A DNA stretch of 64,000 bases, from positions 375,221 through 439,220 of the forward strand of contig QZKH01000003.1 in the NCBI GenBank assembly GCA_003598025.1, read 5' to 3'. Every line of letters begins with the position of its first letter. Position 1 is the first letter of the stretch. The stretch is from Candidatus Omnitrophota bacterium. GTDB lineage: Bacteria > Omnitrophota > Gorgyraeia > Gygaellales > Profunditerraquicolaceae. The notes below the pieces were generated by a model. That model did not search any database, was not told the origin of the DNA, and was given only the letters and a program-made list of their open reading frames with translations. The position numbers and the translations under genes are program-made. Positions 31,360 to 55,953 of the stretch are shown piece after piece.

Positions 31360-31715
31360 TTATAAAATAAATTTGTGAGAAAAACGCCTATGCTGTCATT
31401 AACAACATCAATCAACGCAGGCTCTCTTCCTAAGACAAAAGACTGATGCCATTCGTCAAGTATAGCATAAAACAGGCAAAAAATGAATATCCATAGGAAC
31501 CTCTGCGTATAGCTTAAGTTAAAATAAGCTATAACCGCCCTGTTGACAAAAAACGCAAGCACCGCATATTCAATTATATGCAGAATAATATCCTGGTTCT
31601 CGAATAATTCCGGTACATCATCTCCCGGTATCGAAGAAAGGTAGGATATAAGGCCCGCGCATAAAATTACGGGAAGCCAATAAATAATAAACTTAAGCAG
31701 TTTATTATTTTCCAT
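31356..31715 (-). CDS. VanZ-like membrane protein (start trimmed to the internal MENNKLL)
   Basis: LDEWHQSFVLGREP matches the VanZ family DExHQ motif. Three to four TM helices. The longer ORF-track start overlaps fmdB. Confidence 0.5.
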   Translation of the reverse strand: MENNKLLKFIIYWLPVILCAGLISYLSSIPGDDVPELFENQDIILHIIEYAVLAFFVNRAVIAYFNLSYTQRFLWIFIFCLFYAILDEWHQSFVLGREPALIDVVNDSIGVFLTNLFYK

Positions 31716-31956
31716 GGCCGCAACCATCACAGCCCTCTTTTGATTTAGGGCAAACTGGCGAGCCGGAAGAACTGCTTTTTTTATAATCGGTGGCATAAAA
31801 ACCGGCCCCTTTAAAAATTATGCCAGAGCCTCCGCCGATCAACCTTTTTACTTTTTTACTGCACTTCGGACATCTATCCAACGGCTTATCATTTATTAAC
31901 TGGAATAGCTCAAAATGGTGTCCGCAGTTTGTACATTCATATTCATATGTAGGCAT
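31705..31956 (-). CDS. FmdB-family zinc-ribbon putative regulatory protein
   Basis: MPTYEYECTNCGHHFE...CPKCS matches the FmdB/CxxC-CxxC signature. 83 aa. Confidence 0.7.
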   Translation of the reverse strand: MPTYEYECTNCGHHFELFQLINDKPLDRCPKCSKKVKRLIGGGSGIIFKGAGFYATDYKKSSSSGSPVCPKSKEGCDGCGHGK

Positions 31957-31976
31957 GCTTTACCTCATTTCTTTTA

Positions 31977-32047
31977 GTTCATGGTTCACGGTTCATGGTT
32001 CATAAAAAATACCAAGGCTATGAACAATGAACTATCAACTATGAACT
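31977..32047 (-). repeat. Heptamer-tandem inverted repeat (hairpin) between the dnaJ stop and the fmdB start
   Basis: Four copies of GTTCAYG (31977-32003), a 16-nt spacer, then four copies of ATGAACW/ATCAACT (32020-32047). The arms pair over about 27 nt. Confidence 0.6.
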
Positions 32048-32050
32048 AAT

Positions 32051-33211
32051 TTATCTAAACGTCTTCTTTATCTTTTCCGTAAAGCTTTCCTTGTTTATTT
32101 CTTCGCCGGAAAGCCTGGCAAATTCTTCTATCAGCCTTCTCTGCTCGCTGGTCAATTCAGATGGAATCAGCACATTTACCCTAACCAGCTCATCGCCTAT
32201 ACCCCTGCCATGCAAATCTGCAATCCCTTTAGCCCTCAACCTGAACACCTTGCCGGCTTGAGTACCTGCAGGTATCTTCATCTTAACTTTGCCTAATAAA
32301 GTTGGCACCTCTATTTCAGAACCTAAAATAGCTTTAGATAAGCTTATATCCTTTTCGGTTAATATATCATTGCCGTGCCTCTGGAATAACGGATGAGGTT
32401 CAACCTCAATTACAACATACAAGTCGCCCTTGGCAGACGTGCCGGCTTCGCCTTCTCCTCTTACCCTCAACTGAGAGCCTGTATCGACGCCGGGAGGTAT
32501 TTTGACCTTTATTTTGCGGGTAACTTTGGTCTTACCCTGGCCGTTACAAACCGGGCAAGGACTCTGGATTATTGTGCCTTCTCCACCGCACTTTGAGCAA
32601 GTTTGTGTAAGTTGAAAAAAACCGTTGGAAACAACCATTCTCCCGGTACCCCGGCATTGGGAACAAGTTGTTTTCTTAGAACCGGGCTTAGCCCCTGTCC
32701 CGGAACAATTTGAACATATCTCATATCGCGGGACAGTTACTGTTTTTTCAGTACCCATTGCTGCCTCTTCAAGCCTTATACTTACGGCAATTTGCAGGTC
32801 GCGCCCGCGTCTGCCTCCGCGGCGGCCAGGCTTGCCCCCGAGATCAAAGCCAAGGTCGCCGAATATTTCATCGAACAATCCTCCGCCAAAACCAAAATCG
32901 GACAAATCGCTGAATACCGAGCTAAAATCTGCTCCTTTGAAAATATCTTCGTAAGCATACTTCTGGTCAATGCCTGAATGGCCATACTGGTCATAGAGCC
33001 CCCTCTTCTGGGGATCGGAAAGGACAGCGTAAGCCTCTGATATTTCTTTAAATTTCTCTTCTGCTTCCTTCTTCTGCTCATGCGGCACCCTGTCAGGATG
33101 AAATTGCAAAGCAAGCTGCCTATAGGCTTTCTTTATTTCATCTAAAGAAGCGCTTTTATTTACCCCTAATATTTCGTAATAGTCGCGTTTAGTGGACATA
33201 TATTGGTTCAT
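32051..33211 (-). CDS. dnaJ: Chaperone DnaJ. The conserved start is probably the internal [13 protein letters not shown] near 33199.
   Basis: J-domain HPD motif (QFHPDR), G/F region and four CxxCxGxG zinc-finger repeats. Confidence 0.9.
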
Positions 33212-33277
33212 TGATCATGGTTCATGGATCATGGTCCATGGATATCTCTATGAACTATGAACCATGAACTATGAACT
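33205..33277 (-). repeat. Heptamer-tandem inverted repeat that fills the whole dnaK-dnaJ intergenic region and contains the ORF-track dnaJ ATG
   Basis: Five copies of GRTYCAT (33205-33241), the spacer gatatctct, then four copies of ATGAACY (33250-33277). Confidence 0.6.
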
Positions 33278-33279
33278 AT

Positions 33280-35157
33280 TTATTTCTTATCATCTTCCTC
33301 TTTATATTCTGCGTCGATAACGTCGTCCTTCTTATCCTCGGGCTTTTCTTGTGTCCTTGTGTCCTTGTGTCCTTGTGACTCTTTGCTTTCTTTTTGCTGT
33401 TTTTCCGCTGCCTGCTTATAAATTTCTTCTGCAAGCTTATGGGACGACTTAGTCAGCTCCTCCATGCCCTTTTTGATCCTATCGACGTTTTTATCCTTAA
33501 TAGCCTGTTTTAAATCATTGGTCTTAGCTTCTATATCAGCCCTTTCAGCCTGGCTTACTTTATCGCCGAACTCTTTCAGAGATTTTTCAGTTGAATAAAC
33601 CAGCGTATCAGCCTGGTTTATAACCTCTATTTCTTCTTTTTTCTTTGAGTCTTCAGCCGCGAATTTTTCAGCATCCTTGACCATCTTTTCAATTTCTTCT
33701 TTAGATAACTTCTTAGGCGCGGTTATCCTTATGGATTGCTCTTTGCCCGTACCTAAATCTTTGGCTGAAACATGCACGATACCGTTGGCATCGATATCAA
33801 AAGCGACCTCTATCTGCGGTACGCCTCTGGGCGCAGCCGGTATGCCTACAAGGTCAAACCTGCCCAGCTCCACGTTGTCATTTGCCATAGAGCGCTCGCC
33901 CTGGAGAACGCGGATAGTTACTGCAGTCTGGTTATCGGCCGCGGTAGAAAAAACCTGGCTCTTTTTCGTAGGAATGGTCGTATTGCGCTCGATTAATTTT
34001 GTATTTACTCCGCCTAATGTTTCAATGCCAAGAGACAAAGGAGTAACATCAAGCAGAAGCACATCCTTCATGTCCCCTTTGATTATTGCTGCCTGAATTG
34101 CTGCGCCTAAAGCCACGCACTCCATAGGGTCAACTCCGCGCTCAATCTTCTTGCCTACGTAGTCCTCGACAAATTTTTGCACTATCGGCATCCTTGTCGG
34201 GCCGCCTACCATTATGATCTTGTCAATATCTGCGGATTTAAGCCTTGCATCTGCAAGCGCCTGTTCCATAGGGTGTTTGCATTTTTCAATTATGGGAGAT
34301 ACCAATTCCTCCAGCTTTGCGCGCGTAATCGACATAGTAAGGTGCTTAGGACCGGTTGCGTCGGCGGTAATAAAAGGCAGATTTATATCTGTGGTAAGAG
34401 TAGAGGACAACTCCACCTTTGCCTTTTCAGCTGCCTCACGCAGCCTTTGCGTTGCCATCTTATCGTTATGCAGGTCAATGCCTGTTTCTCTTTTGAACTG
34501 ATTTACTATATAATCAATCAGGATATTATCCATATCGGTACCGCCAAGCTGGGTATCTCCGGAAGTTGATTTTACCTCAAATACACCCTGGGCCATCTCC
34601 ATTATCGTAACGTCCAGTGTCCCGCCGCCAAGATCAAAGACCATTATCTTCTGTTCCTTATGCGACTTCTCCAGGCCATAAGCCAGGCATGCGGCAGTGG
34701 GCTCATTGATAATCCTCAAAACTTTCAAGCCGGCAATTTCACCTGCATCCTTGGTTGCGGTCCTCTGGTTATCATCAAAATATGCGGGGCACGTAATAAC
34801 AACTTCTTCTACTTTATCTCCCAGGTAAGCCTCGGCATCCTGCTTTATTTTCTGGAGGATGAACGCAGATATTTGTTGTGGCGTATATTCCTTGCCATGG
34901 GCTTTAAACTTATAGTCCGTACCCATTTTACGCTTAGCAGCATGAATCGTGCCTTCAGGATTAATCGCAGCTTGCCTTCTTGCGGGTTCCCCGACCAACC
35001 GCTGGCTATCTTTCGTAAAAGCTACAAACGAAGGGAAGGCTTTACCGCTTGCGACACCTGCGCCTTCAGCAGAAGGTATAATCACAGGCCTGCCGCCCTC
35101 CATAACTGCTGCTGCAGAATTTGATGTACCTAAATCAATACCTATAACTTTTGCCAT
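33280..35157 (-). CDS. dnaK: Chaperone DnaK (Hsp70)
   Basis: [19 protein letters not shown] and the other Hsp70 signatures. 625 aa. SD AGAGGAGG. Confidence 0.95.
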
Positions 35158-35188
35158 ATCTCTACCTCCTCTATTATTTTAGTCAATG

Positions 35189-35246
35189 GTCGACAGTCCA
35201 TAATCAACAATCATGCCTGTGAACCGTGGTCCGTGGACTGTGGACA
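35189..35246 (-). repeat. Heptamer-repeat hairpin spanning the grpE 3' end and the grpE-dnaK spacer
   Basis: TGTGAAC CGTGGTC CGTGGAC TGTGGAC (35218-35245, inside the grpE coding sequence) pairs with GTCGACAGTCCAT (35189-35201). Confidence 0.45.
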
Positions 35247-35774
35247 TTTTTTTGATACCTTAACCTTGCTCGTCCTTACGACCCTGTCATTAAGCAAATA
35301 ACCTTTTTGTAATTCCTCTACAATAGTATGCTCCGGTAAATCATCACATTGTTCTTCCATCAAAGCTTCATGAAAACTGGGGTCAAATTTCTTGTTCTTT
35401 GCTTCAATAGGCTTTACCCCGTGCTCTTTAAGCATTTCGTAGAGATGGGCTAAAATCATCTCTACGCCTTTTAAAAACGCCGATAAATCCTGATGCTTGC
35501 TTTGAGCCAGTTCAACTGTACGCTCAAGGTCATCAAGCACATTCAATAATTCCATTACAATTCTTTCATTGGCAAACTTTATAAATTCCTGTTTGTCTCG
35601 TTCCAGGCGTTTCTTAGTATTTTCAAATTCAGCCTGCATCCTCAAAATCCTGTCCCAATGGTCTTCAGCTTTAGCTGCCGCCTCTTTAAGCTTAAGGTAC
35701 TCAGCCTCGCTGATTGTGACTGTCTTATCCTGTGATACAAGTTCTTCTTTTTTTTCTTTGTTATTCTTTTCCAT
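35211..35774 (-). CDS. grpE: Nucleotide exchange factor GrpE
   Basis: Coiled-coil N-terminus followed by the GrpE domain. It overlaps the hrcA stop, which suggests one operon. Confidence 0.85.
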   Translation of the reverse strand: MEKNNKEKKEELVSQDKTVTISEAEYLKLKEAAAKAEDHWDRILRMQAEFENTKKRLERDKQEFIKFANERIVMELLNVLDDLERTVELAQSKHQDLSAFLKGVEMILAHLYEMLKEHGVKPIEAKNKKFDPSFHEALMEEQCDDLPEHTIVEELQKGYLLNDRVVRTSKVKVSKKCPQSTDHGSQA

Positions 35775-35776
35775 GT

Positions 35777-36514
35777 CTAAAATTTGTTTAAAACATCATC
35801 TAAAACTTCTGATATATACTCAAGAGCAGGTATAATATGTTCGTATTCCATGCGCGAGGGGCCTATTACCGCCACCCTGCCTTTATGTTTTTTCTTATTC
35901 CCGTAGGTAGAGACAACTATCGAGCAATGGCTCATCTCAGGGCATTGAAGCTCCTCGCCTATATAAACTTTTACCTTGTTGTCAAAATCCCGGTTGATTA
36001 TCTCAAGTAGTTTTTGTTTTTCCTCGATCAATCTGATCAAAGCCTTAAGCTTGACTGCGTCCTGGAACTCGGGCTGTTCCAATATATGGCTTATGCCTTT
36101 ATAGAATATCTTATCGTGCCAATCCAGGAAGGAAACTATCCCCGTATATTTGGTTATCTTGGATATTATCTCCGAAGTATTCTCAAGTACGTCTTCAAGC
36201 TGATTGATCTTACTGCTGCAGTCTTTTACAATACGCTCTTTTTCATCATCCAGCAATTCCATCTGCGATATAAGGAAATCAACATAATACCTGTATCCCT
36301 TATTTGTAGGAAGGCGGCCTCCTGAGGTATAAGGGTGAGTAAGATATCCTTCATTCTCAAGCTCACAGAGTATATTCCTTATTGTTGCCGAACTTAAGCT
36401 GAATTCTTCCGCCAGGTCATCTGAAGCAACTGGAGAAGCATCTTTAATATATTTGTTAATAGCCAGAGATAAGACTGCTTTTCTTCTGCTATTATAATCA
36501 ACTGTTCTTACCAT
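35777..36514 (-). CDS. hrcA: Heat-inducible transcription repressor HrcA (short, 245 aa)
   Basis: N-terminal winged HTH (SSATIRNILCELENEGYL). A CIRCE element and promoter lie directly upstream. Confidence 0.8.
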   Translation of the reverse strand: MVRTVDYNSRRKAVLSLAINKYIKDASPVASDDLAEEFSLSSATIRNILCELENEGYLTHPYTSGGRLPTNKGYRYYVDFLISQMELLDDEKERIVKDCSSKINQLEDVLENTSEIISKITKYTGIVSFLDWHDKIFYKGISHILEQPEFQDAVKLKALIRLIEEKQKLLEIINRDFDNKVKVYIGEELQCPEMSHCSIVVSTYGNKKKHKGRVAVIGPSRMEYEHIIPALEYISEVLDDVLNKF

Positions 36515-36535: not shown

Positions 36536-36562
36536 TTAGCACTTTACCCCTTAGAATGCTAA
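36536..36562 (-). promoter_or_regulatory. CIRCE operator (HrcA binding site) upstream of hrcA-grpE-dnaK-dnaJ
   Basis: TTAGCACTT-N9-GAATGCTAA against the consensus TTAGCACTC-N9-GAGTGCTAA (16 of 18). Confidence 0.7.
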
Positions 36563-39292: not shown

Positions 39293-39319
39293 TTAGCAAT
39301 CCATCTTAAAGAGTGCTAA
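39293..39319 (-). promoter_or_regulatory. Second CIRCE operator, between hspR and clpB
   Basis: TTAGCAATC-N9-GAGTGCTAA (17 of 18 to the consensus), 41 nt upstream of the clpB ATG. Confidence 0.65.
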
Positions 39320-43253: not shown

Positions 43254-44486
43254 TTAACCCTTCGTGCTTTTGGAGATTTTCCTTTGTAAATCCAGGACCT
43301 TCTTATGCCTCATATTCTTTTCCTGCGCATCGATGTTATCGGCAAATTTTAAGGCTTCGGTATGAGGCCGCGGAGAATATTTGAATATGTAGGCTGAGTT
43401 AAATTCAACTTCTTTGACTAAATTGTAGGTATCCATAAAATCTTCTTCGGATTCACTGGGAAAGCCTACGATAACATCAGTAGTTAATACCCCATTTTTA
43501 ACTATTTTACGATAATTAGACACTAAATCCAAATAGAATTTTCTGGTATAACCCCTATTCATCAAATTAAGTATCTTATCAGAACCTGACTGCACCGGCA
43601 AGTGCAGTGATTTCTTGAGCTTGTCAAAGCCTGCCACTGCCTTAAAAAGTTCATTTGTTGTATCCCTAGGATGCGAAGTAAGGAAACTAAATTCCTTTAG
43701 CCCTTTAACCCTATTAACCATTTCCAATAATTTAACAAAATCTATGAACTCTGAACCATGAACTATGAACTTATAGGCGTTTACGTTCTGCCCCAATAGT
43801 GTAATACTCGTTATTCCTTTATCAATTGCCTGCTCAATTTCCTTGATTATATCCTCTGGCTTTCGCGAACGCAAATTTCCCCTGACATAAGGGACAACAC
43901 AATAAGAACAATAATTTTCGCAGCCTTCTGAAATTACCACAAAAGCATGATTCTTATCCGCATAAAATCCGGTATGATAAATCTCATCGGGCCTCACCAG
44001 ACTATCCGTTTCCCAAATTTTCTTCTCAAACATGCTTTTACCATTAACCATGAACTGTGAACCATGAACAAGTATCTCTATTATCCCCGGTATCTTATGT
44101 ATATCCGTTGGGCCAACAACAAAATCCACATTAGGCGCTATCTCAAAAACCTTATCTTTATAATTCTGCGCCATACACCCCACAAGGCCAATTATTGGTG
44201 ACTTTGTGACTTTGTGACTTTGTGACTCATTTTTGTAGGCACCTATCTGGCTCCAGACCCTATCCTCCGCATGCTGCCTAACCGCGCAGGTATTCAGGAT
44301 TATTACATCAGCAGCCTTAGGATCAGTTGATAGTTCATAGTTCATAGATCGTAACAAACCAGCGATAACCTCCGAATCCCGCGCATTCATTTGACATCCG
44401 AAGGTGCGCAAAAGCACTCGTAACTTCTTCTCGCTTTTGCCCCCGGAATTGCCTGATTTGTCGTCTTTTCGCTCATTTTCAACCAT
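43254..44486 (-). CDS. miaB: tRNA-2-methylthio-N6-dimethylallyladenosine synthase (MTTase). The N-terminus is atypical and overlaps the recombinase gene.
   Basis: RTFGCQMN MTTase motif, radical-SAM CENYCSYC and a TRAM-like C-terminus. It contains in-frame 7- and 8-nt tandem repeats. Confidence 0.75.
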   Translation of the reverse strand: MVENERKDDKSGNSGGKSEKKLRVLLRTFGCQMNARDSEVIAGLLRSMNYELSTDPKAADVIILNTCAVRQHAEDRVWSQIGAYKNESQSHKVTKSPIIGLVGCMAQNYKDKVFEIAPNVDFVVGPTDIHKIPGIIEILVHGSQFMVNGKSMFEKKIWETDSLVRPDEIYHTGFYADKNHAFVVISEGCENYCSYCVVPYVRGNLRSRKPEDIIKEIEQAIDKGITSITLLGQNVNAYKFIVHGSEFIDFVKLLEMVNRVKGLKEFSFLTSHPRDTTNELFKAVAGFDKLKKSLHLPVQSGSDKILNLMNRGYTRKFYLDLVSNYRKIVKNGVLTTDVIVGFPSESEEDFMDTYNLVKEVEFNSAYIFKYSPRPHTEALKFADNIDAQEKNMRHKKVLDLQRKISKSTKG

Positions 44487-46066
44487 TTTGTCCCCTCTTC
44501 ATAGCAAGTCTTCCACGGCTCATTCAGCTCGAACTTCACGATCTCCTGATTCTGGATGTGAATCGACTTGAAGATGATCCGCATAAAGGTTTTGACCAGA
44601 TAATCCAACTGGTGGTCATCCGGCGTGTTCCGCAACCTCAAAAGGAAATCCTGCGTCGCCTTAACAAGGTTTGCGGAATTGCGCTTATCCAGAATCTTGA
44701 GCTGAATCGCCTTGATATCCTGCTTTAGTTTTTTCTCTTCATTACTTAAAAGCTCTGCTCTTTCCTTGTAGAGCGCAAGATTAATCTTATCCTCCGAGAA
44801 AAGCTCGTAAATCCCCCGTTGCTTCTCAATATTTTTCTTAAGATGCGCTTCCTTCTCCTCCAATTGTTCAATGTATAATTGCTCCGGCTCAGAAGCGCTT
44901 AATTTGATCATGTCACCCAACTCCTCGATGACATGGATATTCTTTCGGATGACTTCAATAATATCCCATATCGGCCTATTGAGCGCGTCAGCCGTAACCG
45001 ATTTATTATTGCACTTAATATGCGGAATGCCCTTCGATGAGCAACGATACCACGGCCTGCGCATCTTGGTGCGATGATTAACGGTAGACATAATTCCGCG
45101 ATAATTACCGCCGCATTCATTGCACTTTATGATTCCAGAAAGATGATAAACATTATTTCTAAACCTAACCACGCCATTGGTGCGGTTCCGTTTAAGAAGC
45201 TCTCTTGCCTCGTCAAAATCTTTTTGCGTGATGATCGCCTCGTGGGTATTGAATACTTCAATAATCTTCGAGGGATCGTTATTCACATACTTATACCCTT
45301 TACCTTCGCCGTTCTTAGTTTTCTCTTTTGTGTTGTAGCGGCGACGGTTCCACACCAGCATGCCCAGATAAACTTTGCTCTGCAGAATATTGGAGATGAA
45401 TTTGTTATAAAACCGGCCTCCCTGCCGCGATGGAATCCCGAGAGCGTAATAATGCCCGGCAATCTGCGAAGTGCTTTTGCCGCTGATATACATCGCATAA
45501 ATCTCTTTAACGATCTTTGCTTCCTCCGGATGGACTTCCAGTTTCTTGGCGTCTTTATTATATCTGTAGCCATACGGCGCATACCTCGCGCCCTGCCAGT
45601 GGCCACGCTTAACCCCTACGACCATGCCGGGAAATACGCGCTCAACCAGACGATTGCGTTCAAACTCTGCGCAACTACCAAGCATCTGAATCGCCATCTT
45701 TCCCGCGCTGGACGTAGTATCAAACGGTTCGGTGGCTGATTTATATCCGATACCAAGTGAATCAAACTCCTCAAGCAATCCCAGCAGATCCTTGAGCCGC
45801 CTGCTTAAACGATCTTGTTTGTAGACCAAAACAAGATCAAATTGTTTATTACGCGCGTCAAACAAAAGCCGCTGAAGCGCCGGTCTGTCCATATTCCCGC
45901 CGGAATAGCCATCATCCACATAAACATCCCTGCCTGACATGGTACAAATAACATCCCAGGTGAAATTTTTCGCGTATTGCAAAAGATATGCCCTCTGAAC
46001 CTCCAGCGAAAAGCCTTCCCGCGCCTGATCCTCTGTGCTGACTCTTGTATATAACGCTACTCTCAT
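44387..46066 (-). CDS. Large serine recombinase (integrase)
   Basis: N-terminal resolvase catalytic domain MRVALYTRVSTEDQ with the catalytic Ser, a recombinase domain, a Zn ribbon (CNECGG) and a coiled coil. 559 aa. Confidence 0.85.
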   Translation of the reverse strand: MRVALYTRVSTEDQAREGFSLEVQRAYLLQYAKNFTWDVICTMSGRDVYVDDGYSGGNMDRPALQRLLFDARNKQFDLVLVYKQDRLSRRLKDLLGLLEEFDSLGIGYKSATEPFDTTSSAGKMAIQMLGSCAEFERNRLVERVFPGMVVGVKRGHWQGARYAPYGYRYNKDAKKLEVHPEEAKIVKEIYAMYISGKSTSQIAGHYYALGIPSRQGGRFYNKFISNILQSKVYLGMLVWNRRRYNTKEKTKNGEGKGYKYVNNDPSKIIEVFNTHEAIITQKDFDEARELLKRNRTNGVVRFRNNVYHLSGIIKCNECGGNYRGIMSTVNHRTKMRRPWYRCSSKGIPHIKCNNKSVTADALNRPIWDIIEVIRKNIHVIEELGDMIKLSASEPEQLYIEQLEEKEAHLKKNIEKQRGIYELFSEDKINLALYKERAELLSNEEKKLKQDIKAIQLKILDKRNSANLVKATQDFLLRLRNTPDDHQLDYLVKTFMRIIFKSIHIQNQEIVKFELNEPWKTCYEEGTKWLKMSEKTTNQAIPGAKARRSYECFCAPSDVK

Positions 46067-46067
46067 T

Positions 46068-46838
46068 TTATACCCTTTGCGCCTTACGTAATTCTATGAA
46101 CTCCTCATCGCTAATTTCCTTATTTTCATAAACAGTTTCATCCCGTAATAAATTTTGTCCTTTGACCGTTTCAACACGATGTCCGTAGCCAGTTAAAATA
46201 CAATGTGGGATTATCATTTCCTTAACAAACGGATTTTCCTCAGCAGTCTTCTTTATATATATTTCACCAGGTGACCAGAAATAGATATCTTCTCTTGCGC
46301 CTACCGCAAAAAAATATGTCGTAATATCATAAATTATTTTTAAAGCGCTTAAAGTTTTGGCCTCAATGTCTTCCAGCTTATTAAAATGAATAACTTCGTG
46401 CCGAATATCTTTAAGCTCCATATACTTCACTTTTATCTCATCTGAGATAATTACCTTCCAATCACATAATATGTCTACCGATTTCGACCAATCATCGAAT
46501 GAATCTTTTCTATATATATGCTTGTAGTGTTCACTAGATTTATAATGATCTCGAAGTCGCAGTAAAAGAATATTAAAAATCCTTTCGCCCAAACAACATG
46601 CGGAGGTTAATGCGGGATAATATAAACCATAAATGAAGCAATCCTCTATTTCTTGCAGTAAATCATGATATTCAGTAATTACCCGTAACGAAGGTGGCTT
46701 AAAAGACATATATCTCTCAAATTTTTCATCAAGATTCAAATCGCCGTAACGACTAGCAACATGCTGTTTTATTTCCTGCGGCACAGGAATATTTCTAATG
46801 CAATCAATAAAGAAATTTGTTGCCCTATATCGCTTCAT
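46068..46838 (-). CDS. Uncharacterised 256-aa cargo protein of the element
   Basis: No motif recognised. It lies between the Xis-like gene and the integrase, with a 1-bp gap to the integrase gene. Confidence 0.4.
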   Translation of the reverse strand: MKRYRATNFFIDCIRNIPVPQEIKQHVASRYGDLNLDEKFERYMSFKPPSLRVITEYHDLLQEIEDCFIYGLYYPALTSACCLGERIFNILLLRLRDHYKSSEHYKHIYRKDSFDDWSKSVDILCDWKVIISDEIKVKYMELKDIRHEVIHFNKLEDIEAKTLSALKIIYDITTYFFAVGAREDIYFWSPGEIYIKKTAEENPFVKEMIIPHCILTGYGHRVETVKGQNLLRDETVYENKEISDEEFIELRKAQRV

Positions 46839-50078: not shown

Positions 50079-50093
50079 AGTTTCAATGCCTCC

Positions 50094-50357
50094 TACTAGC
50101 TACATACGCAAGGATTTGGAAAACTGACGGAAATATTTTCATTTTTTTCGACCCTCTACTAGCTACATACGACGTTTTTTGTAAAACTGACGGAAATATT
50201 TTCACTTTCTTCACCACTTTCACTCCCCTAAGCGTATATTCCCCTTTTTCCCGAAAAGTGTCGGAACTTTCTGCCCCCTCATAGGTGATTACGCAAAATT
50301 TCCAAAAGTGTCGGGGCTCTCACCTATGTACACGCAATATTTTTCAAAGTGTCGAAC
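50094..50357. repeat. Iteron-like direct repeats (putative origin of the element)
   Basis: Two 48-bp direct repeats (50094-50141 and 50157-50204, sharing CTACTAGCTACATACG...AAAACTGACGGAAATATTTTCA). Three copies of AAAGTGTCG(G/A) at about 50253, 50303 and 50344. ATAGGTGA/TCACCTAT flanks the middle copy. Confidence 0.5.
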
Positions 50358-50414
50358 TGCCCTTCTACTAACCCATACAGGAACTTTCCCGAAACTGGCG
50401 TAACTATTTACGCC

Positions 50415-50456
50415 TAACAAGAAAAAGCCATCTCCGGCCAATTGACTGGAAATGGC
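50415..50456 (-). terminator. Rho-independent terminator of the ars operon
   Basis: Stem GCCATTTCC-loop-GGAGATGGC, followed on the minus strand by TTTTTCTTGTT. Confidence 0.45.
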
Positions 50457-50611
50457 TTTTCCCGCACAGGCGAAACAGTGATCAGCTGTCCCGTAAGTCT
50501 ATTTTAATTTTATAACAGCGCGAATCTTTCTCAAGGGGGTCGTTACTACAAAATAGCAATAATTAGAAGAGGGCCTTTTTGCTAAAAAAGGCTTTTGGAA
50601 GGAGTAATTCT

Positions 50612-54445: not shown

Positions 54446-55647
54446 TTAACCACCGCTCCAAAAATCATACCACTGATAGTTGCCATGACCACAACTAAAG
54501 CCACATACACTGCTGTTTTTTTGGTTCCCATGATGCTCCGAAGCACAAGCATGCTCGGCAAGCTCAAAGCAGGCCCGGCCAAGAGAAGCGCCAAAGCAGG
54601 CCCTTTACCCATTCCTGAGTTCATCAATCCCTGTAATATAGGCACTTCTGTAAGCGTGGCGAAATACATAAATGCCGCCACAATTGATGAGAAGAAATTC
54701 GCCCATAACGAATTGCCGCCAACAAGCATGGTCACATATCGTGAAGGGATAACTCCCTCATGTCCTACCCTACCAAGCAGAAAACCTGAAACTAAAACTC
54801 CTCCTAAAAGAAGCGGCAATATCTGAAGCGCAAAACCCCATGTCGCTCCAGTCCATTCTCTTAACTCATCCCTTTTGAACCACTTGAAGAGCATAATCGC
54901 TAAGCTCATAAAAGATAATCCAGCGATCCACCATTTATACTGATAAATTATTGACCAAATACCATGATCACCCTCAAGCGGCTTCCCCCAGTTAGCAAAC
55001 ACCAAAAAAGCTACCATTGAGGCGAAATATAAAACGGTTTTACCTAAGGAGCGGGTTTCTTTTAACTCTCCAACATTGAAGTCCCCATTGGCGTGACGAG
55101 CCCTTTCTTCTTTTAAAAAGATGAGATGCATTAATAGTCCGATGACAACACTAAATACCACCGCTCCAATAGCTCGTGCCAACCCTAGCTCCCACCCAAG
55201 GATACGTGCGGTTAGAATGATTGCTAAAACATTTATGGCAGGCCCGGAATATAGAAAAGCGATCGCGGGTCCAAGCCCTGCCCCTCTTTTGTATATGCCT
55301 GAAAATAGCGGTAAAACCGTACAAGAACAAACAGCGAGAATTGTTCCCGACACAGAAGCGACACTATAAGAAAGGAATTTATTCGCCTTAGCCCCGAAAT
55401 ACTTCATCACGGACGCTTGGCTGACAAAAACAGATATCGCTCCGGCTATAAAGAACGCCGGAACAAGACACAAAAGCACGTGCTCCCGGGCGTACCATTT
55501 AACAAGAGCCAGAGCCTCAAAGACAGCATTGGTAAAACGAAGATTTTCTACCGGCAGGTAAAAACAGCCTAAGAATATGGCGGCAATATAAAGAAACTTC
55601 TTCCACTCTTTCATTTCTTGACCGTCCTCCCTCCAATAGTACAGCAA
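54442..55647 (-). CDS. arsP: Permease of the DUF318/YraQ type, ArsP-like organoarsenical efflux permease
   Basis: Multi-TM protein with a conserved CSC in a TM helix (ILAVCSCTVLP, like the TPFcSCS motif). It sits in an ars operon next to arsM. Confidence 0.55.
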   Translation of the reverse strand: MLYYWREDGQEMKEWKKFLYIAAIFLGCFYLPVENLRFTNAVFEALALVKWYAREHVLLCLVPAFFIAGAISVFVSQASVMKYFGAKANKFLSYSVASVSGTILAVCSCTVLPLFSGIYKRGAGLGPAIAFLYSGPAINVLAIILTARILGWELGLARAIGAVVFSVVIGLLMHLIFLKEERARHANGDFNVGELKETRSLGKTVLYFASMVAFLVFANWGKPLEGDHGIWSIIYQYKWWIAGLSFMSLAIMLFKWFKRDELREWTGATWGFALQILPLLLGGVLVSGFLLGRVGHEGVIPSRYVTMLVGGNSLWANFFSSIVAAFMYFATLTEVPILQGLMNSGMGKGPALALLLAGPALSLPSMLVLRSIMGTKKTAVYVALVVVMATISGMIFGAVVK

Positions 55648-55919
55648 CCGCCTTCAATACGGATCGCCTTAACATTCACCAGCGCGTCTGTGACTTTTTT
55701 GCAGGCTGATGCAACAATCCGCGAAAATGTCGGCCGGGATATCTTCATAAGTTTTGCCGCATCCCTCTGCTTCATCGCTTCCAAGCAGGCCAGCCGCATC
55801 GCCTCAAATTCATCGATGCTTAAAACAACACCTTCGAGTTTATTCAAAGGCTTGCATTTTGGCCGGAAACATCTCTCCCCCGGCAAACATTTAACCCATC
55901 TTGTTTTCTTTGGACGCAT
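55611..55919 (-). CDS. DUF134 (UPF0251) predicted DNA-binding protein, Cys-rich
   Basis: MRPKKTRWV..P....FKP......LEGVVLSIDEFEAMRL..LE...Q.DAA..M.ISRPTFSRI is the DUF134 signature. It ends with a vicinal Cys pair (EGGCCTIGG). Confidence 0.6.
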   Translation of the reverse strand: MRPKKTRWVKCLPGERCFRPKCKPLNKLEGVVLSIDEFEAMRLACLEAMKQRDAAKLMKISRPTFSRIVASACKKVTDALVNVKAIRIEGGCCTIGGRTVKK

Positions 55920-55933
55920 AAATAGACCTTTCG

Positions 55934-55953
55934 GTTATGAACATTGGTTCATA
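55934..55953. promoter_or_regulatory. Perfect 8-4-8 palindrome TTATGAAC-attg-GTTCATAA, 15 nt upstream of the DUF134 start
   Basis: Seen in the sequence. It is a candidate operator of the ars operon. Confidence 0.35.

Follow-up and report, generated by a model that had tools for sequence, protein, structure and literature searches.

What are the tandem-heptamer hairpins that stand between the genes of a dnaK operon in Candidatus Omnitrophota, and are they part of its heat-shock control? The DNA that we analysed, called the window throughout, is 64,000 nucleotides long (positions 1-64000), and its GrpE is 100% identical to a protein of a 'Candidatus Omnitrophota bacterium' metagenome-assembled genome. 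Within it lies the operon hrcA-grpE-dnaK-dnaJ-Zn-ribbon (FmdB-type), for which an earlier reading of the sequence (the original prediction) had proposed a heptamer-built hairpin at every junction from grpE onwards. The heptamer arrays were found where that reading had placed them, both in the sequence itself and in repeat scans. We consider it probable that the junction hairpins belong to a genome-specific family of small dispersed palindromes (~65-80 nt) with heptamer-array arms (AGTTCAT / ATGAACY), which colonise gene junctions and are gained, lost and replaced; an effect that they may have on the operon is set out below. They behave as a combination of heptanucleotide simple sequence repeats (SSRs; also known as short tandemly repeated repetitive sequences, STRRs, or long SSRs) and mobile hairpins resembling paired repetitive extragenic palindromes (REPs; the pairs are called REPINs) or miniature inverted-repeat transposable elements (MITEs). 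A heat-shock-specific device is not supported. The operon and its three elements are as follows.

31705..36514, minus strand: host operon hrcA-grpE-dnaK-dnaJ-Zn-ribbon, containing the three junctions, with synteny kept in relatives
33213..33276, minus strand: hairpin element 1, which fills the spacer from the dnaK stop to the dnaJ start
31974..32049, minus strand: hairpin element 2, between the dnaJ stop and the Zn-ribbon gene
35182..35245, minus strand: degenerate third element, at the grpE/dnaK junction

Element 1 reads, on the plus strand, GGTTCAT TGATCAT GGTTCAT GGATCAT GGTCCAT, ~9 nt, and then ATGAACT ATGAACC ATGAACT ATGAACT. Its mRNA 5' arm consists of four AGUUCAU units (plus-strand positions 33250-33277) and its 3' arm of five AUGRWYC-type units (33205-33242), with a loop of ~8 nt between them. 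The RNA was predicted to fold into a 25-bp stem at -27.8 kcal/mol (z -4.1), a stability reached by 0/200 shuffled sequences, and the stem begins 3-5 nt past the dnaK UAA. Element 2 is composed of GTTCATG GTTCACG GTTCATG GTTCATA, 15 nt, and ATGAACA ATGAACT ATCAACT ATGAACT. Its mRNA arms (5' arm 32020-32047, 3' arm 31977-32004, plus-strand positions) form a 28-bp stem at -31.8 kcal/mol (z -5.4, no shuffle as stable) around a predicted loop of 12 nt, and this stem begins 2 nt past the dnaJ UAA. Both are stable stem-loops directly 3' of an upstream cistron within the operon, 2-5 nt after the dnaK and dnaJ stops, and both have the same regular build, in which ~6 bp are followed by one mismatch, i.e. 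a 1x1 mismatch at every seventh position. No other inverted repeat in the window is as strong.

The third junction was claimed to carry a hairpin of the same kind, and here the original prediction held only for the array. Four GUCCACR-type heptamers (TGTGAAC CGTGGTC CGTGGAC TGTGGAC on the plus strand, 35218-35245) lie inside the 3' coding end of grpE and face a weak partner arm, GTCAATG GTCGACA GTCCATA, at 35182-35202. The grpE/dnaK junction RNA of the window was not more stable than its shuffles (z +0.18). Intact hairpins are present at this junction in two relatives (loci L126 and L128). Compensatory changes in the grpE/dnaK hairpin, looked for by eye among the window, L126 and L128, were rejected as evidence, being confounded by the coding constraint on the 5' arm.

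Tandem Repeats Finder and lag-7 scans gave 8 period-7 arrays in the window compared with 0.7 in dinucleotide shuffles (~10-fold), while period 8 gave 2 arrays, period 9 none and period 6 gave 6 regions compared with 2.7 in shuffles. The GTTCAT-type family is represented by two full elements, one degenerate element and three solo arms. The arrays and stems at dnaK/dnaJ and dnaJ/Zn-ribbon are non-random. A minus-strand scan reported nothing resembling a terminator at the two hairpins, and there is no U tract, the tails reading CCAAUAUAUG and CUAAAAGAAA; we therefore agree with the earlier view that these are not simple terminators. No Rfam covariance model matched anywhere in the window at gathering thresholds.

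We then asked how such elements are distributed among relatives. The survey covered 89 Omnitrophota loci with conserved gene order (82 after removal of near-identical assemblies), in which GrpE or DnaJ is 66-81% identical to that of the window; the loci were annotated with the window's proteins. Junctions were counted by distinct spacer sequences, and the spacer z-scores are rough (25 mononucleotide shuffles). The junctions turned out to be bimodal, being either overlapping or abutting (e.g. TAAATG at dnaK/dnaJ) or separated by a 50-160-nt spacer. In the long spacers, an inverted pair of arrays with 7- or 8-nt units takes up nearly all of the sequence from stop codon to start codon, and such filling of co-directional junctions is typical of the elements in Omnitrophota. 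The counts for the individual junctions were:

dnaK/dnaJ: 68 distinct junctions, 36 with a spacer of at least 45 nt, 25 with a period-7/8 array, 34 with an array or a stem of z<-3
dnaJ/Zn-ribbon: 73 distinct junctions, 25 with a spacer of at least 45 nt, 15 with a period-7/8 array, 20 with an array or a stem of z<-3
DUF1015/accD: 48 distinct junctions, 16 with a spacer of at least 45 nt, 9 with a period-7/8 array, 14 with an array or a stem of z<-3
grpE/dnaK: 44 distinct junctions, 26 with a spacer of at least 45 nt, 6 with a period-7/8 array, 16 with an array or a stem of z<-3
accD/ABC: 40 distinct junctions, 24 with a spacer of at least 45 nt, 4 with a period-7/8 array, 6 with an array or a stem of z<-3

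At dnaK/dnaJ, 26 of the 36 spacers of at least 45 nt had z<-3. In the four types of promoter-bearing spacer, only 4 of 47 long spacers contained arrays. A genome with an element at dnaK/dnaJ tends to have one at dnaJ/Zn-ribbon too (odds ratio 6.5), pointing to a genome-level element load. Relatives carry elements at DUF1015/accD, accD/ABC and miaA/hflX, which are not heat-shock junctions, and also in the hrcA 5' untranslated region (5'UTR); the elements are therefore not specific to heat shock.

The repeat units differ widely between genomes, with GTTCATR, GCGTAAA, GCTCATA, AGCGTAT, ACTACCT and CTGACAA among the heptamers and AGTRTCAW, CTGGTGAC and TTTGTGAC among the octamers. Two array sites had a unit in common in 45% of pairs within a locus and in 6.5% of pairs between loci. 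This recurrence within a genome and divergence between genomes, together with copies at non-heat-shock junctions and in coding sequence, favours the genome-specific REP/STRR-like family that had been one of the options raised originally. The window family itself (AGTTCAT x4, loop, NATGAAC x4) aligns with elements of five other Omnitrophota genomes to one consensus.

The clearest evidence for replacement comes from L172 and L189, which are 92-97% identical over 13 kb and yet have unrelated elements at both junctions that flank dnaJ. In L172, dnaK/dnaJ, dnaJ/Zn-ribbon and the hrcA 5'UTR each hold a GTTTACA element, and these share a GCTGCGC loop, whereas in L189 both of the junctions next to dnaJ hold an AGTRTCAW octamer element, and the two copies are near identical over 47 nt. 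At accD/ABC, L189 has a 120-nt insertion of the GTTTACA family where the otherwise identical site of L172 is empty, and the grpE/dnaK spacer measures 2 nt in L172 compared with 92 nt in L189. Local slippage with point mutation cannot yield this pattern, which requires copying from one locus to another.

Slippage is probably at work too. In the dnaK/dnaJ spacer, L126 (7465-7650) has (CCTTTAA)18 and L127 (8029-8152) has (CCTTTAA)9, the copies occupying the loop between short inverted arms; the two assemblies come from different samples and are 99.99% identical over 7.4 kb. Short-read assembly collapse could also have produced this difference of 18 and 9 units. We conclude that array length probably changes by slippage, and that close relatives gain, lose and replace whole elements.

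These observations bear directly on a simpler explanation, according to which the arrays are ordinary SSRs grown in situ by local slippage, with arm symmetry maintained by template switching at hairpins, and neither move nor have a function. Period 7 does predominate here as it does in bacterial long SSRs (PMC4679880), the 18 and 9 copies of the near-identical assemblies are what slippage would give, and a few single-arm or intermediate spacers exist (L130, L199). Near-identical copies within a genome, loops and flanks included (the 47 nt of L189, the three copies of L172), are not accounted for in this way, nor are the concerted replacement of both junction elements between ~94% identical genomes, the discrete 120-nt insertion opposite an empty site or the bimodal spacer lengths. 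We regard growth in situ alone as quite unlikely, more so than selection for the hairpins themselves, which is weighed further below.

Arrays are found inside coding sequence too. The GrpE tail PQSTDHGSQA is translated heptamer repeat (window 35214-35245). A similar tail (PQS[TK]DHSPQ) occurs in several relatives (P0002, P0007, P0114; 67-73% identity) and is absent in others, where grpE abuts or overlaps dnaK. A miaB-like gene (43254-44486) contains three heptamer arms of the window's junction unit and one 8-nt array, and a further 8-nt array lies in dnaK:

33348..33377, minus strand: 8-nt array, 3.8 copies of CTTGTGTC (plus strand), in the hypervariable C-terminal linker of DnaK
43742..43771, minus strand: solo heptamer arm of CTATGAA type in miaB, encoding FIVHGSEF, a 5-residue insertion relative to the L127 ortholog
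44040..44069, minus strand: solo heptamer arm in miaB, encoding LVHGSQFMVNG, a variable loop
44198..44227, minus strand: 8-nt array, 3.8 copies of GTGACTTT, in miaB, encoding SQSHKVTKS
44325..44347, minus strand: solo heptamer arm in miaB, encoding SMNYEL

At the position equivalent to 44325..44347, the L127 ortholog has 2.5 copies of CTATGAG (SMSYEL). Comparison with solved MiaB structures and with the Omnitrophota ortholog placed the array-encoded MiaB segments in variable loops. All coding-sequence copies in the window are single arms of 21-30 nt, and we conclude that single arms are tolerated in the parts of genes that encode disordered segments or loops. The two arrays of 8-nt units in the window (GTGACTTT and CTTGTGTC), both within coding sequence, represent a second family of repeats and each end in TTGTGACTC; in L193, TTTGTGAC octamers build the dnaK/dnaJ hairpin itself.

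How do these elements relate to known repeats? Long SSRs with units of 5-11 nt were described by Mrazek 2007, as cited in PMC4679880 and PMC4692102; heptamers are their most abundant class, for which slippage of the polymerase has been put forward as an explanation (PMC4679880, PMC4692102). Xanthomonas heptamers (GGGAATC) usually come in ~4 units and sometimes as inverted pairs (PMC4692102), Geobacter metallireducens has elements of four or five heptamers within and between genes (PMC2700814), and heptamers of Beggiatoaceae (TAACTGA) and Nostoc abut start codons (PMC4679880, bioRxiv 10.1101/2022.06.06.494920). No function is established in any of these cases (PMC4679880, PMC4692102, PMC2700814, bioRxiv 10.1101/2022.06.06.494920). 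The elements described here have at least three head-to-tail 7-nt copies above chance, with period 7 predominant, as in long SSRs. Like heptanucleotide SSRs they have 7-nt units in ~4 copies, are mostly intergenic, often lie near start codons and differ in sequence and length from one close relative to another; that class, too, is reported to include inverted pairs and copies within genes. They differ in host (Omnitrophota) and in their units, in the dominance of the inverted-pair hairpin and in the filling of the space from stop to start. In addition, whole elements are dispersed and replaceable rather than being products of local slippage only. The units STRR1-3 are specific to heterocystous cyanobacteria. 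We rejected STRR in the strict sense, given that the host is Candidatus Omnitrophota and the units are AGTTCAT and GTCCACR.

Properties of the second class are equally evident. REPINs are inverted REP doublets, i.e. mobile hairpins (PMC3116915), and are mobilised by REP-associated tyrosine transposases (RAYTs; PMC3116915, PMC3337134). As in REPs and REPINs, the elements have two inverted arms, form a hairpin of 60-110 nt, are genome-specific, are dispersed between co-directional genes, and differ in presence or absence between close relatives. Unlike those repeats, they have arms with an internal periodicity of 7 nt and a mismatch at every seventh position, and solo arms occur in the coding sequence of miaB, dnaK and grpE, so that they are not strictly extragenic. 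Rickettsia palindromic elements are small palindromic repeats of 100-150 bp that also occur in frame within protein-coding genes and have no tandem heptamers; here, by comparison, coding sequence holds single arms of 21-30 nt only. We therefore place the elements as the Omnitrophota member of the heptanucleotide-repeat / REPIN-like class.

A family of dispersed palindromes has to be reconciled with several findings that weigh against it. The one pair of empty and filled sites (accD/ABC in L172 and L189) shows no clear target-site duplication, and no Y1/RAYT transposase was detected by Pfam among 20 small open reading frames (ORFs) of the window, the only DNA searched for one. The dnaK/dnaJ junction is the most often occupied, 34 of 68 distinct junctions having an array or strong hairpin compared with 56/205 (27%) pooled elsewhere (Fisher p ~0.001, not corrected for phylogeny). 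Within the window the intergenic copies all lie in the dnaK operon, at 3/3 junctions compared with 0/15 other spacers of at least 45 nt. Uniform scatter without heat-shock bias, which the original prediction had named as evidence against itself, was thus borne out as far as the elements are not heat-shock specific, but not in these last two respects. The counts leave room for some selection for a hairpin at dnaK/dnaJ. Finally, comparison of sense and antisense folding gave no strong signal at the RNA level: the effect was weak overall (36/59, p=0.02), the dnaK/dnaJ junction had no RNA-strand bias (12/25), and both window hairpins fold better as antisense. This result fits a DNA-level palindrome and says nothing positive about a function in mRNA.

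The same counts are the starting point for the best of the alternatives, in which the hairpins are kept by selection for chaperone stoichiometry (DnaK >> DnaJ, GrpE), acting through mRNA stabilisation, processing or partial termination, with the repeats as raw material. Besides the high occupancy of dnaK/dnaJ, this explanation is favoured by the recurrence of the structure with unrelated sequences, by a stem that abuts the dnaK stop ahead of a dnaJ lacking a Shine-Dalgarno (SD) sequence lineage-wide, and by precedent (PMC4423207, PMC3446304). However, half of the relatives have an overlapping or tight dnaK/dnaJ junction (TAAATG) and no structure there, elements also occupy unrelated junctions, a 5'UTR and coding sequence, occupancy tracks the genome-wide element load, and dnaK/dnaJ lacks a strand bias. 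Selection of this kind is possible but, in our view, rather unlikely as the explanation of the hairpins.

Within the preferred reading, in which the hairpins are dispersed palindromes, an effect on the operon can still be described, provisionally and by analogy. Intercistronic stem-loops set transcript ratios within operons (cip-cel operon, PMC4423207), REPs and intercistronic stem-loops protect upstream mRNA (PMC4423207, PMC3479197), and the Bacillus dnaK operon mRNA is processed into segments and decays segmentally (PMC3446304). Transcription of the operon would yield each element as a stem of 25-28 bp. By analogy with these cases, such a stem just past dnaK and dnaJ would probably hold up 3' exonucleases or act as a partial stop, and would favour the upstream cistrons. 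The stem before dnaJ would also part the SD-less dnaJ start from the dnaK stop and lower DnaJ synthesis, which may then depend on ribosomes that finish dnaK opening the base of the stem. In the cip-cel and Bacillus operons, as here, a stable stem-loop stands just 3' of the cistron made in excess in a polycistronic mRNA; those are unique, locus-specific structures with measured effects, whereas here the structure is a generic repeat. An effect of processing or stability on the relative expression of DnaK and DnaJ is plausible on these grounds, and a neutral, tolerated-parasite status is fully compatible with the data.

Translation starts at the junctions help to define what such a stem could do. 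It had been proposed that the stem before dnaJ buries five AUGs, the ORF-track dnaJ start among them, and leaves no clear SD. The 3' arm does hold five AUGs, dnaJ has no SD, and the ORF-track start at 33211 falls within the last repeat unit. The AUG that homology supports as the start (MSTKRDYY), however, is at 33199 and lies 13 nt past the stem. The SD of dnaK is unpaired in the predicted fold, and that of the Zn-ribbon gene (GAGG) lies free, 8 nt downstream of element 2. Across the lineage, dnaK always has an SD and the Zn-ribbon gene has one at 69/73 junctions, while dnaJ has none whether or not an element is present. In five relatives (L164, L172, L187, L208, L209) many elements have a recurring motif of CCGAGCGAAGCGAGG type after the 3' arm and ahead of the next start codon, and the similar ACGGAGTGAGGG is present at the empty accD/ABC site of L172. 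This type of motif may extend the ribosome-binding region, or it may be a target that insertions prefer.

The arrays could also be multivalent sites for an RNA- or DNA-binding protein. They often abut SD-less start codons (e.g. those of dnaJ and accD in relatives), and binding has been proposed in Beggiatoaceae, for the TAACTGA repeats ahead of start codons, and in Nostoc, for heptamer repeats (PMC4679880; bioRxiv 10.1101/2022.06.06.494920). Unit sequences, however, vary greatly from one close genome to the next and even inside a single genome, the arrays pair with an inverted partner, and no candidate binding protein was identified; we find such sites very improbable.

The least credible explanation, to which we give hardly any weight, is an RNA thermometer or other heat-shock-specific riboregulator, as the original prediction had suggested, in which heat would melt the stems and release translation of the downstream chaperone genes. 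In its favour are the placement within a heat-shock operon, the presence of AUGs in the 3' arm ahead of an SD-less dnaJ and the regular mismatches, which would lower the melting temperature. However, when the junction RNAs were folded at 10-55 °C the predicted stems were still there at 45 °C (-22.1 kcal/mol for element 1, -25.4 kcal/mol for element 2) and at 55 °C (-15.5 and -17.5 kcal/mol), neither the dnaK SD nor that of the Zn-ribbon gene is paired, the dnaJ AUG supported by homology is outside the stem, Rfam gave no match, elements also lie at non-heat-shock genes, and the operon is already under CIRCE/HrcA control (CIRCE, controlling inverted repeat of chaperone expression).

The minus strand carries 61/62 called ORFs of the window. 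So long a run of co-directional genes is unusual, and their junctions are very tight or overlap. Pfam identified the consecutive genes clpB, hrcA, grpE, dnaK, dnaJ, Zn-ribbon (FmdB-type), VanZ and DUF1015. The genes of the operon and its control sites are:

35777-36514, minus strand: hrcA
35211-35774, minus strand: grpE, stop codon at 35211-35213
33280-35157, minus strand: dnaK
32051-33211, minus strand: dnaJ, probable true start the ATG at 33199
31705-31956, minus strand: Zn-ribbon (FmdB-type) gene
36596-36569, minus strand: operon promoter TTGACA-16-TAAAAT, upstream of hrcA, strongly promoter-like
36536-36562, minus strand: CIRCE operator, upstream of hrcA
39293-39319, minus strand: second CIRCE operator, upstream of clpB

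Both operators, found by a scan of the window, read TTAGCAC...N9...GTGCTAA with 1-2 mismatches. Since a CIRCE precedes clpB, this gene belongs to the HrcA regulon here. With a promoter and CIRCE at hrcA and a CIRCE at clpB, heat-shock control is of the ordinary HrcA/CIRCE type, and its actual elements are the hrcA promoter and CIRCE rather than the hairpins.

A few other repeats and genes of these loci deserve mention. At the head of an ars-like cluster, the palindrome ATGAACattgGTTCAT (55937-55952) precedes a DUF134 gene (55611-55919). It had been said to use the same core as the heptamers, a resemblance that we attribute to chance, as ATGAAC occurs 34 times outside the arrays with 31 expected. 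A 63-nt tandem duplication (1.9 copies, 86% matches; window 50093-50212) in the 533-nt spacer upstream of an arsC-like gene, and an adjoining imperfect palindrome with 34-nt arms (50408-50475), are unrelated to the heptamer family. Next to miaB, a 559-aa ORF in window 44387-46838 overlaps, at its end, the first 100 nt of miaB as annotated; judged by its N-terminus, it resembles a large serine recombinase. The 256-aa ORF that follows it had no Pfam match. An integrated element may adjoin miaB here (44387-46838), and miaB probably starts further downstream than in the ORF track.

Absent from the window is a 20-nt G+C-rich palindrome, CCTGCCTGCCGRCAGGCAGG, which is exactly conserved in several divergent Omnitrophota genomes and nested in A/T-rich repeat arrays. 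Its sites are:

L002, 9664-9683
L005, 4991-5010
L131, 5012-5031
L132, 9993-10012
L168, 388-407
L179, 4828-4847

In L002-L004 and L005, direct repeats of 12-20 nt flank it on either side (e.g. TAACGCAGATATACGCA, present twice in L005). It looks like a separate tiny inserted element.

Arrays of this kind extend beyond the phylum. We searched 596 Gb with a pattern of 20 bases, four TGAAC units at 7-nt spacing, for which ~1 match is expected, and obtained at least 120 loci from at least 15 phyla, isolates included. Among the loci listed there were 237 period-7 arrays, 94 of them with unrelated units and 92 with an inverted partner within 170 nt; with the search-pattern arrays masked, these loci gave 99 arrays of period 7 compared with 9 of period 8, 2 of period 6 and 4 of period 9. 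The arrays mostly lie outside ORFs, at 62% of arrays compared with 11% of sequence in the same loci. In three Acidobacteriota loci (L031, L063, L102), inspection by eye found inverted GTTCAAR/YTTGAAC arrays running from a stop codon to 0-10 nt before a plausible start. Placement from stop to start may be general. A bolder proposal is that inverted heptamer and octamer palindromes form an unrecognised, phylum-spanning class of non-autonomous mobile elements that home to stop/start junctions and have been co-opted repeatedly at dnaK/dnaJ in Omnitrophota to uncouple and down-tune DnaJ, with period 7 reflecting the enzyme that mobilises or replicates them; we consider this unlikely, though slightly less so than growth in situ alone.

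For genome annotation, such elements mean false start codons (the ORF-track dnaJ start), repeat-encoded tails (GrpE) and loop insertions (MiaB). For nearly two decades, tandem heptamers have been noted as the commonest long simple repeats of bacteria, and no origin or function for them has gained acceptance. The present results extend heptamer repeats to Omnitrophota, and the comparative data add that these repeats can act as discrete, replaceable palindromes at operon junctions. The pair L172 and L189, being ~94% identical, offers a concrete system in which to study how the repeats move and why their period is seven.

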